30,391 nucleotides of DNA from a virus: the IMG/VR virus record IMGVR_UViG_3300032053_000003, positions 1-30,391 of that record, one strand, 5' to 3'. Positions 6,502 to 8,838 of this stretch are shown one piece after another. The notes below the pieces were generated by a model. It did not search any database. It saw only the letters and a list, made by a program, of their open reading frames with translations, and had not been told where the DNA came from. How positions within the stretch are numbered: position 1 is the first letter of the stretch; each line of letters begins with the position of its first letter. A program made the translations under genes and the position numbers.

Positions 6502-8838
6502 ATGGCAGGAAACATTTGGAAAAGCATATTTCAGACCTTTAATCCTTTCAAGAAGGGTATACAGGATCAGTTGAATCTTGAGAGAGAGATTGATCGTGGT
6601 GAGATAGAGGTCGATTCCTATTACCAGATGATCCCCAAGACTCTTAGGGGTGGTAGGGCCACAGAGGAAGAGAACATCTTTGCAGTCTACCTTGCCAGTC
6701 TGAAGATCTCTGAATACCGTGACAAGATCTATGACAATTACTCAGCCATACGATCTAACTATCTGGTTCAGTCCATCTTGGAGATCATGACTGATGACTG
6801 TCTCAGACCTGATAAAGCTACTGGTAACATTGTCAACATTACCTCTGCTAATGCTGAGTGGAATAAGGAGCTGGAGAGACTCCAGGACAAGATAGACTTC
6901 GATGCTATCATCAGTGACATTACTCCTGAGATCCTGCTCTATGGTGAGTATGCCCAGCACCTGAAGTTTGTTAAGGGGGAAGGTCTCCTTGATATGGAGG
7001 ATGTCTTTGACATCAAGAACATTCTGCCTATCTATAAGGGTGGTAAGATCAAAGAGTACTTGGTTAAGTCAGACTCTTCTGATCAGCAAGGGAATGTGTT
7101 GCTTCCTGAGACAATGGGAGGTGTGGCCTTTGATAGAGCACCCCTCTATAAGTATGTTTACTTCGTAAGAGCTGGCAAGAGGATAAGGGTCAAGGCTACC
7201 AAACCAGCTTACTCTAATCTGACCAATCAGTTTGAAGTAGATAGGATCTCAGGCAATGTTCGTATTGGTAGATCCGTCATCCCCACCTCTCTCATCCCTC
7301 TCATCAAGTCCCTCACTACCCTGGAGACTATCCTTCCTTTGGTTCGTATCCTGCAGCTGGACAAAAGGTCCCTGGTAGGTATCAGGTTCCCTGGTGTCAC
7401 AAAGCTTGAGAGGGTACAGAACACTGTCCAGGAATATGAGAGGATGATCAATGATACCTGGAGGACTGCTAATATAGCTACTACTGGTGAGTTCAATGTC
7501 CAAGACTTGATAGGTTCAATCACGAAGTTCAGAGTCATCCCTCTTCTCGGAGAGAAAGGCTGCTTCACAGCTGATACTGAGATTGCTATGTTTTGTGGAG
7601 ACAATATAAAGATCAAGAATCTGGTAGGATTGAAACAGTTCATTGTTTACTCGTATGACCAGGAACTGAATCAGATAGTTCCTGGTAAGGGGTACAACTG
7701 CCATATGACCAAAGCCAATGCACCTATTATGGCAGTGGCTCTTGATAATGGTGAAGTCCTCAAGTGTACCTATGACCATAAGTGGATGACAAGGGAGGGT
7801 GTATACAAGGAGGCTCAGGAGCTTAAGCCTGGTGACTCTCTCATGCCTCTTTACAGACGTACTAAGGAAGCCTTCGCAGATCTTCCTGGGTTGGTTGACT
7901 CACCAAGGAACCAGGAGGAGATTTACCAGCCTGGTAAGGGTTGGTCCCTTACGAGAGATACCTTGTCTGAGATAAGGAATATTCACAGTAAAGATCAGGC
8001 AGCTGTCCTCAATCATAAGGTTATCTACACAGAACCTGTTGGCAATGCAGATGTCTATGACTTCACGGTTGAGAACTATCACAATTTTGCTTTGAATGCT
8101 GGTGTCTTTGTTCATAACTCCATAGAGATGCAGGACATCCCTACTCCAGAAATTGGAAATATGGAGGACTTCGATTACATCAAGAAGACTGTCTTTGAAG
8201 GTGTAGGAGTCCCCAGTGCCTACGTGCTTGGTGGTGAGGGTAAGGAATCCCTTAAGACCTATGTGAGGTACCTGAAGAAGCTTGCATCTATTCAGAGATC
8301 CCTCGTGGTGGGTTTGAAGCATATAGCTGTTGTTCACCTCAGGGCTCTGGGTCACAAGGCTTTGCCTTCTGATATTAATATTGAGTTTGCCAATCTGGTG
8401 TCTGTTGAGAACCTCGATGAGCTGGAATACCTGGATATTCTCACATCTCTCCTTAGGAATTACTGGGAATTTGTCCGTGACATGGATGATGTCGATGGAC
8501 CTACACCTGGTATCGTCAACTGGGGTGAGGTCATGACCTTCTTGTACGACAAGATGAAGAGCTTTGCAGGTTCTGAGAAGTTCTTGGAGAAGAACGTAGC
8601 CTACTTCAAGAAGTTGGGTAAGCTTCCTATTGAAACCAAGGTTACAGCAGGTGCTGGTGGTGCTGGTGGTGCTGGTGCTCCTGATTTGGGAGGTGGTGAG
8701 ACTCCTGAGGCTCCAGGGGGTGACAAAGGCTTCAAGATAGTTCCCCCTGGTGAAGCCGGTAAGACTAAGGGTGGTGGGGAAGAGGAAGGAGCTGGTTATG
8801 AAATGGAAGAGCCTGGTGGAGCAGCCATAACAGGTTAG
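6502..8838 (+). CDS. Large virion morphogenesis protein (possibly portal), interrupted by a mini-intein; Gly-rich acidic C-terminal tail
   Basis: 778-aa ORF. Extein about 592 aa after removing residues 354-539. Positioned downstream of terL. Disordered C-terminal tail GAGGAGGAGAPDLGGGETPEAPGG...EEEGAGYEMEEPGG. The portal assignment rests on position and size only. Confidence 0.4.
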   Translation: MAGNIWKSIFQTFNPFKKGIQDQLNLEREIDRGEIEVDSYYQMIPKTLRGGRATEEENIFAVYLASLKISEYRDKIYDNYSAIRSNYLVQSILEIMTDDCLRPDKATGNIVNITSANAEWNKELERLQDKIDFDAIISDITPEILLYGEYAQHLKFVKGEGLLDMEDVFDIKNILPIYKGGKIKEYLVKSDSSDQQGNVLLPETMGGVAFDRAPLYKYVYFVRAGKRIRVKATKPAYSNLTNQFEVDRISGNVRIGRSVIPTSLIPLIKSLTTLETILPLVRILQLDKRSLVGIRFPGVTKLERVQNTVQEYERMINDTWRTANIATTGEFNVQDLIGSITKFRVIPLLGEKGCFTADTEIAMFCGDNIKIKNLVGLKQFIVYSYDQELNQIVPGKGYNCHMTKANAPIMAVALDNGEVLKCTYDHKWMTREGVYKEAQELKPGDSLMPLYRRTKEAFADLPGLVDSPRNQEEIYQPGKGWSLTRDTLSEIRNIHSKDQAAVLNHKVIYTEPVGNADVYDFTVENYHNFALNAGVFVHNSIEMQDIPTPEIGNMEDFDYIKKTVFEGVGVPSAYVLGGEGKESLKTYVRYLKKLASIQRSLVVGLKHIAVVHLRALGHKALPSDINIEFANLVSVENLDELEYLDILTSLLRNYWEFVRDMDDVDGPTPGIVNWGEVMTFLYDKMKSFAGSEKFLEKNVAYFKKLGKLPIETKVTAGAGGAGGAGAPDLGGGETPEAPGGDKGFKIVPPGEAGKTKGGGEEEGAGYEMEEPGGAAITG
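7561..8118 (+). mobile_element. Mini-intein (186 aa) paralogous to the terL intein
   Basis: Starts Cys (CFTADTEIAMFCGDNIKIKNLV, block A). Block B TYDHKWMT. Ends VYDFTVENYHNFALNAGVFVHN + Ser. Its C-terminal blocks are near-identical to the terL intein (YHNFAL..GV.VHNS). Confidence 0.8.

Follow-up and report, generated by a model that had tools for sequence, protein, structure and literature searches.

The portal gene and its intein

The stretch of DNA analysed here, called the window, comprises positions 1 to 30,391 (30,391 nucleotides, nt) of the viral record IMGVR_UViG_3300032053_000003 (IMG/VR). The gene under study lies on its plus strand at positions 6502 to 8838 and encodes a predicted portal protein of the T4 gp20 type, interrupted by a mini-intein. 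The features of this gene are listed below, with the basis of each in brackets.

6502..8838, plus strand: portal protein precursor gene, 778 amino acids (aa) plus stop, ATG start, predicted T4 gp20-type portal with one intein (list of open reading frames (ORFs) and translation)
6502..7560, plus strand: N-extein, aa 1-353, with the C-terminal end ...VIPLLGEKG (intein junction)
7555-7557, plus strand: codon of K352, the last-but-one N-extein residue (column mapping to gp20 K342 of the inner clip loop)
7561..8118, plus strand: predicted class-1 mini-intein, 186 aa, from Cys1 to His-Asn, aa 354-539 (Pfam Intein_splicing; family hidden Markov model (HMM); AlphaFold2 (AF2) model; intein-less homologs)
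7768..7779, plus strand: block B TYDH, intein positions 70-73 (conservation among orthologs and family)
7915..7974, plus strand: putative vestige of an HNH_3-type homing endonuclease in the linker, EEIYQPGKGWSLTRDTLSEI, intein positions 119-138 (alignment to related inteins)
8050..8118, plus strand: blocks F and G, DVYDFTVENYHNFALNAGVFVHN, the terminal Asn being the predicted cyclising residue (sequence and conservation)
8119..8838, plus strand: C-extein, SIEMQDIPTPEIGNMEDFDY..., its first residue being the predicted +1 Ser nucleophile, nt 8119-8121 (junction)
8611..8835, plus strand: Gly/Glu/Ala-rich low-complexity C-terminal tail, aa 704-778, with the island GFKIVPPGEAG (composition; ortholog comparison)

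An original prediction, made from the letters of the window and a list of its ORFs, had placed a mini-intein in a portal-like gene. Its coordinates for the ORF (6502-8838) and the intein (aa 354-539, nt 7561-8118) were recovered exactly, and the block B TYDH, the VFVHN end and the following Ser were all found in the translated ORF. The intein starts with CFTADTEIAMFCGDNIKIKNLV. Pfam Intein_splicing (PF14890) matched it with 66.2 bits (cut-off 35.8, E 3.9e-18). All class-1 catalytic residues were present: C1, T70 and H73, D166 of block F, H185-N186 and S+1. Across 10 portal-site orthologs C1, T70, H73, D166 and H185-N186 were invariant and S+1 was kept in 10 of 10; among the 292 other family members, block B carried its Thr in 270 and its His in 290. 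AF2 modelling from a 12-sequence alignment gave a predicted local distance difference test score (pLDDT) of ~70-86 for the intein region (mean for the whole precursor, 49.9). With Foldseek, the modelled intein matched solved mini-inteins (Ssp and Npu DnaB, Npu DnaE) at target-normalised template modelling (TM) scores of 0.77-0.84 (E 3e-11). Judged by its sequence, the insert is a genuine class-1 intein of the self-splicing type. When all six frames of the window were scanned with an HMM of the family, made from 302 inteins, the only elements matched were the portal intein and an intein in the large terminase gene (terL).

The joined exteins (592 aa) were matched by Pfam Portal_T4 (PF07230) with 30.0 bits (cut-off 22.9) over positions 2-394 of the 433 in the profile, spanning the junction, and the unspliced precursor scored 22.3 bits, just below the cut-off. 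Searches of phage genomes with tblastn returned the 'portal vertex protein of head' of T4-like Rhizobium phages (E 9e-30), aligned in two pieces on either side of the intein. A profile of ten spliced or intein-less homologs matched PDB entry 9ums ('Prt', 9.5e-10), T4 gp20 (3JA7/6UZC, 2-3e-8) and also 9lu6 ('Portal protein'). For PDB sequences the profile was required, as phmmer with the single spliced portal yielded noise only. No portal structures were matched by Foldseek with the low-confidence AF2 portal part, and megablast of the portal gene against 50,697 phage records gave no match. terL lies 3.8 kb upstream of the portal gene. An identical portal protein is encoded on a 237,444-bp contig, and the source is therefore taken to be a large uncultivated phage. 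The host had originally been called a portal from size and synteny, and a comparison of the joined exteins with portal families had been proposed; the identification is borne out by the Portal_T4 match above cut-off, the annotated T4-like portals and the profile matches to gp20 structures. By homology, then, the host protein falls among the T4 gp20-type portals, and the gene is to be annotated as that of a T4-type portal with an intein and a predicted mature protein of 592 aa.

The Gly/Glu-rich C-terminal tail, also noted earlier, is evident in the composition of the last 75 residues (31% Gly, 13% Glu, 13% Ala). All close relatives have the tail, but its sequence changes rapidly, with 41-76% identity to the window versus 85-95% for the C-extein core. 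Conserved within it are the short island GFK(I/V)VPP(G/E)EAG and an acidic end. T4 gp20 (524 aa) stops soon after the crown domain, and such a tail may be absent there.

As predicted, neither the portal intein nor the terL intein contained an endonuclease domain in searches of Pfam and PHROGs. Opposite-strand endonuclease genes have been described for some actinophage inteins; here the minus-strand ORFs, three overlapping the portal intein and two in terL (one of them over its intein), gave no Pfam match. Full-length members of the family carry HNH_3 between blocks B and F (P0155, P0034, P0093, P0013, P0015 and P0016), including P0155, the closest non-orthologous relative (59% identical in the splicing domain). 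The portal linker EEIYQPGKGWSLTRDTLSEI was aligned without gaps to GYEEILQPNNIWNKTHRIVYDW of P0162, and also to the equivalents in P0019 and the terL inteins. The aligned stretch is the start of the HNH_3 domain, its first hairpin; the remainder is absent from the portal intein, and the catalytic HH..N..NL core is missing from its linker. The E.YQPG.GW...R residues of the vestige were invariant across the 10 orthologs, and the vestige was modelled by AF2 as a beta-hairpin (protein residues 471-476 and 480-483). On this alignment, both inteins of the window are decayed inteins of the HNH type.

Insertion site and inheritance of the portal intein

The GEKG|S site was occupied only in the window portal and its close relatives, ten proteins in all. 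The nine further portals (P0164-P0171 and P0014, on different contigs) share 76-92% extein identity with that of the window and carry an intein at the same site. The intein-less P0172 (61% identical) is continuous over the site (VIPLLGDKG-SIEMQE), the Ser at the +1 position being present here also. P0173 and P0174 are likewise without an intein and contiguous over the site.

In the profile alignment, K352 of the window corresponds to K342 of gp20, and the intein junction to gp20 A343|V344. The clip domain of the T4 portal comprises residues 279-358 (PMC4493910). Within it, R338 and K342 belong to the inner clip loop at the channel entrance, where alanine changes abolish packaging, and residues 350-359 form the channel loop (PMC4493910). 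P0166 (917 aa), a close relative of the window portal, carries a second, unrelated intein of 135 aa, which is inserted 13 residues downstream, after PEIG, and aligns with gp20 G357|N358 in the channel loop. As the sites map to the inner clip loop and the channel loop, both occupied sites are DNA-contacting loops, and the portal sites occupied in this phage group would thus be the two such loops at the channel entrance. Loops that contact DNA are the usual location for inteins.

A related arrangement was seen on the partial contig L001 (2-853). Its intein is of the site-1 type and has the same PGKGWTLTRDTLSEL linker, yet is directly followed by SMDDFDY, the 13 residues SIEMQDIPTPEIG that normally stand after the intein being missing. 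Either the intein was shifted by 13 residues, or these were deleted when tandem inteins recombined through their conserved C-blocks. The partial protein P0011 was at one point considered a plain 'site 2' intein; this was dropped once the upstream frame had been examined.

Every one of the ten portals with at least 76% extein identity carries the same-site intein. Identity of the intein followed that of the exteins (Spearman 0.90 against the window, 0.65 over 45 pairs), with the intein less conserved than the exteins in 44 of the 45 pairs. Averaged over the pairs, identity was 0.83 in the exteins, 0.68 in the splicing domain and 0.48 in the linker. GC content at third codon positions (GC3) of portal intein and exteins in four genomes was 0.47/0.51, 0.35/0.38, 0.45/0.55 and 0.41/0.36, a gap of at most ~0.1, as against ~0.23-0.25 in the terL intein of the window and in that of L003. 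These results point to a fixed, vertically inherited and long-resident element rather than a spreading one.

Interpretation and alternative explanations

With a probability of about 0.88, we take the gene to encode the portal of a large uncultivated T4-like phage that contains a non-mobile, vertically inherited intein. The HNH core of this intein would have been deleted, its retention would depend on splicing, and it would not be a duplicate of the terL intein. In the proposed mechanism, with the standard four steps, Cys354 would form a thioester with Gly353, which would be transferred to the side chain of Ser540. The terminal Asn539 would then cyclise and free the intein, and an O-to-N shift would produce a normal peptide bond (GEKG-SIEMQD). 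The product would be a 592-aa portal able to build the dodecameric DNA channel. The intein would sit in the inner clip loop, one residue past the lysine equivalent to gp20 K342 and at the channel mouth, and the unspliced protein is therefore very unlikely to work. After deletion of the nuclease core a conserved hairpin of ~20 residues would have been left, and the intein would persist as a passenger element, retained only since a working portal needs splicing. Mini-inteins and nuclease decay are expected at a late stage of the homing cycle, and the portal intein would be a tidy but unsurprising case of it: nuclease lost, element fixed, and evolving faster than the host gene.

Several points weigh against this explanation. 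Splicing, in its chemistry as in its efficiency, is deduced from the conserved catalytic residues and the need for a working portal. The site was mapped on gp20 by a profile alignment of modest score (36 bits) and not by structural superposition, because the AF2 portal part was poor. The neighbour-joining tree described below is based on 139 columns, covers only inteins of the 150 top-ranking proteins found with the portal intein as query, and does not resolve deep branching. Finally, the invariant linker core and a clade-specific cysteine, Cys12, suggest constraints beyond bare splicing.

Cys12 (nt 7594-7596) was invariant in the ten portal-site inteins, whereas nearly all of the 292 other family members have Asp or Asn at this position. 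Cys12 could be a disulfide partner or a metal ligand. Cys47 was also enriched in the portal-site clade. There is a small chance that the invariant vestige hairpin (E.YQPG.GW..R) and Cys12 together reflect a retained function, either redox-gated splicing that times the opening of the channel mouth or residual DNA binding for a trans nuclease. Somewhat similarly, the intein might have been co-opted as a conditional switch, for example under redox control by Cys12, and so set the timing of portal maturation; such a role would supplement the passenger explanation and not replace it. The switch is improbable. It would be consistent with the clade-specific and invariant Cys12, with the invariant linker core and with long retention at a critical site, but retention is already accounted for by the lethality of imprecise loss.

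A recently acquired intein that is still mobile and spreads horizontally among these phages is very unlikely. The family is huge and includes full-length members with HNH_3, the terL intein content varies among related phages, and the P0166 portal has gained its second intein. Against this, the nuclease core is absent from the portal intein, overlapping ORFs in other frames or antisense had no Pfam match, and the intein is more diverged than the exteins, tracks their divergence and is ameliorated in composition, as given above.

A non-mobile, vertically inherited portal intein is also favoured over an exchange with the terL intein. The features that bear on this question are listed below.

371..2698, plus strand: large terminase gene (terL), 775 aa (spliced protein matches phage TerL)
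968-1516, plus strand: terL intein, 183 aa, aa 200-382, before the Walker-B-like SGLLDEAS (Pfam Intein_splicing, 69.6 bits)
12744..13373, plus strand: free-standing HNH/endonuclease-VII-like gene, outside the intein (PHROG 3322, 1035 and 3118, E 1e-22 to 4e-17)
24658..24999, plus strand: free-standing small LAGLIDADG-like endonuclease gene, 113 aa, outside the intein (phrog_5046, 1.2e-12; motif YFAGIVDGEG)

Phage large terminases matched spliced TerL in a single alignment that covered 95% of the protein (E 1e-82 to 1e-93). In the original prediction, the two inteins had been regarded as likely intragenomic paralogs on account of their similar C-terminal blocks, with possible trans-acting mobility through free-standing LAGLIDADG and HNH endonucleases. 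Put in full, one intein would be a recent copy of the other, moved in trans by these endonucleases. The two inteins do belong to the same broad family and have motifs in common (blastp 79.7 bits, E 8e-24; phmmer domain 66 bits), but their identity is 30% overall and 36% in the splicing domain (139 columns of a 302-domain alignment), and the pairwise alignment suggested as a check thus gave no close pair. An exhaustive HMMER search with the portal intein as query returned 4,402 proteins at E<=1e-3, of which 2,405 reached E<=1e-10. Among the best 150 of these proteins, 98 intein domains outscored the terL intein against the portal intein, and 56 domains outscored the portal intein against the terL intein. 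With same-site orthologs excluded, the terL intein came 261st among 292 neighbours of the portal intein, and in the reverse comparison the portal intein came 229th among 300; neither entered the top ten of the other in any of 1000 column bootstraps. The smallest neighbour-joining clade with both inteins held 241 of the 302 tips, so in the phylogeny that had likewise been proposed the two stand apart. The ten portal-site inteins formed one clade, and the terL intein grouped with that of L004 (same site) and next with the HNH intein at another terL site in L002. A word-indexed protein search gave no match for the terL intein; its relatives come from neighbouring loci and from the exhaustive HMMER search in which the portal intein was the query.

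The similarity of the C-terminal blocks is real, with 14 of 22 residues shared. As a sign of paralogy it fails, since 148 of 298 other family inteins equal or exceed it; it is therefore a signature of the family. In a check for gene conversion, the longest common DNA word was 15 nt, which exceeds the 95th percentile of the shuffles (11) but lies within their maximum of 16, and codons were identical at 7 of the 15 C-block positions with the same residue. The terL intein has a GC content of 0.317 and a GC3 of 0.235, compared with 0.427 and 0.485 for its exteins; GC3 of the portal intein is 0.468, with 0.510 for its exteins. The L003 terL intein shows an AT-rich contrast with its exteins like that of the window terL intein. 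The terL inteins may thus be the more recent arrivals, derived from an AT-rich source.

Presence and absence of inteins differed at three terL sites in the phage group (window 371-2698; L002:5462-8521, L003:3090-6116, L004:4746-7781), so inteins do move in the lineage, a point in favour of the copying scheme. L002 has an HNH intein at site a, which precedes Walker A. At site b, inside the P-loop (GxGK|ST), L003 carries a LAGLIDADG intein and L004 a mini-intein. Site c precedes SGLLDEAS; L004 has an HNH intein there, and the window has the decayed copy. The inteins of sites a and c are mutual next relatives (58%), and inteins may thus have moved from one site to another within the terL gene. 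The site-c intein of L004 comprises 268 aa (LAVF|C...HN|SGMLDEAS), shares 71% identity with the window terL intein in the splicing domain and has an intact HNH_3 core with the motif GHTIHHKDF...NNKLNNL. In the window terL intein, DDGYYNIVNPYDGIDRPVHKIIYEYKNGSIPVG is kept and is followed straight by the C-terminal blocks. From this alignment, the terL intein is visibly a deletion derivative of an HNH-bearing copy as in L004. On the similarity data, it belongs to the same family as the portal intein but was acquired and has decayed independently, and is neither a recent source nor a recent copy of that intein.

Free-standing LAGLIDADG and HNH endonuclease-like genes were both found in the window, as stated in the original prediction, although ORF 24658-24999 scored 17.7 bits against Pfam LAGLIDADG_1, under the cut-off of 23.1. 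The HNH-like gene is 4.6 kb and the LAGLIDADG-like gene 16.5 kb away from the portal intein, and neither gene adjoins either intein. Searches of 300 family inteins with phmmer and blastp, the LAGLIDADG intein of L003 among them, found nothing similar to either gene product, and the ORFs flanking the portal gene had no family match. A derivation of the two genes as escaped intein nucleases is not supported, since they have no similarity to the nuclease parts of the family inteins. T4 offers a precedent for trans-homing: its free-standing HNH gene mobE reportedly mobilises an intron with a defunct I-TevIII. In the known cases of trans or collaborative homing, the free-standing gene is said to adjoin its target. 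Here the genes are distant and unrelated to the family nuclease, and the portal intein co-diverges with its exteins, so trans-acting mobility received no positive support; taken with the ranks, the tree and the composition given above, the copying scheme is hardly tenable. The LAGLIDADG-like gene is located between a gene similar to DNA topoisomerase (PHROG 6247, E 2e-57) and an ORF of unassigned function (window 23782-25982). An intergenic spot of that kind is typical for free-standing homing endonucleases.

Least credible of all is that the insert remains in the mature portal as an extra domain, either an inactive HINT remnant or a bacterial intein-like (BIL) domain: splicing is a prediction, and the insert has no nuclease and extra linker sequence, but C1, TxxH, the block F Asp, HN and S+1 are invariant in ten lineages despite ~57-66% splicing-domain identity, a 21-kDa domain in each of 12 subunits at a conserved DNA-channel loop would block the channel mouth, and BIL domains are not known as precise insertions at conserved sites of housekeeping proteins.

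Comparison with known systems and other features of the window

Portal and terminase genes of mycobacteriophages and actinobacteriophages are known to hold inteins (PMC5050341; bioRxiv 10.1101/2025.01.02.630785). In a 2025 PhagesDB survey, the portal inteins of actinobacteriophages fell into five polyphyletic groups (bioRxiv 10.1101/2025.01.02.630785). The window resembles mycobacteriophages with cluster C1 'PORT' inteins in that a phage portal gene is interrupted and terminase inteins occur in the same genomes (PMC5050341). Unlike in the actinophage portal inteins, where the survey entry is InterPro IPR009279, the host here is of the PF07230 gp20 type (bioRxiv 10.1101/2025.01.02.630785). The site in the inner clip loop and the HNH-lineage mini-intein, as opposed to LAGLIDADG-bearing inteins, are further differences, the two being set apart by their descriptions only.

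With natural and engineered mini-inteins such as Ssp DnaB, Npu DnaB, Npu DnaE and the Mtu RecA splicing domain, the portal intein would share the HINT fold, the lack of a working endonuclease and class-1 chemistry. It differs from the solved mini-inteins in its sequence (17-23% identity only), in a linker of ~50 residues with the HNH_3 vestige, and in Ser instead of Cys at +1. Closer to it are the HNH_3 inteins of metagenomic origin (P0155, P0013, P0015 and P0157; terL of L002 and L004), which are of the same family (46-59% splicing-domain identity), occur in the same kinds of host genes and have the signature NHKV...VYDFTV..YHNFAL.AGVFVHN in common with it. Unlike the window portal intein, they retain the nuclease and occupy other sites. 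As in T4 with mobE and I-TevIII, a nuclease-less element, here presumably self-splicing, occurs together with free-standing endonuclease genes in one phage genome. Unlike mobE, the genes of the window are 4.6-16.5 kb away and unrelated to the family nuclease, and the portal intein shows no polymorphism of the mobility type.

Other T4-type portals carry inteins of the same family at other sites: four in P0013, three in P0015, two in P0157 and one in P0155. Several of the inteins in these four portals have an HNH_3 nuclease, and one has a GIY-YIG (SegE-like) nuclease. The HNH-associated family appears to have colonised T4-type portals of uncultivated phages many times, and portals appear to be a favoured home. 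T4-type portal genes of such phages would thus be a frequent home of one large HNH-associated family, with up to four inteins per portal. The gp20-type host family, the inner-clip-loop site and the repeated colonisation of T4-type portals are modestly new; portal and terminase inteins in phages, mini-inteins and decaying nucleases are already known. As a small, naturally nuclease-free intein with Ser at +1, the portal intein is a candidate tool for protein engineering.

Further features were observed elsewhere in the window. About 11 plus-strand frames, mostly small, share the N-terminal motif M-[S/T/G/N]-K-A-x(2-3)-L-L..L.E, with starts at 3, 3751, 4294, 5710, 8985, 11634, 11836, 13741, 16493, 17912 and 27566. 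Examples are MSKARSLLLKVQE, MTKAHKLISLLE and MSKAEELLEQLN; the upstream DNA is not shared. The motif may resemble the short N-terminal capsid-targeting sequences of T4 internal proteins, which end in an L/I-x-E protease site.

Three paralogs (2708-3472, 10711-11616 and 14307-15221) have the N-terminus M[A/S]LGKFDG..NIGK in common. The first contains a Laminin_G_3/concanavalin-like domain (Pfam, 78 bits), and the other two contain repeats of the W(N/S)GSSWATT..L type. They could serve in receptor binding or as fibres, with an anchor in common. The small ORFs 3-371 and 11830-12138 gave weak matches to ParB-like nuclease/partition proteins (PHROG E 9e-6 and 7e-4), with the motifs DGIHR and DGHHR. 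One of these ORFs lies directly upstream of terL, where the small terminase subunit is expected.

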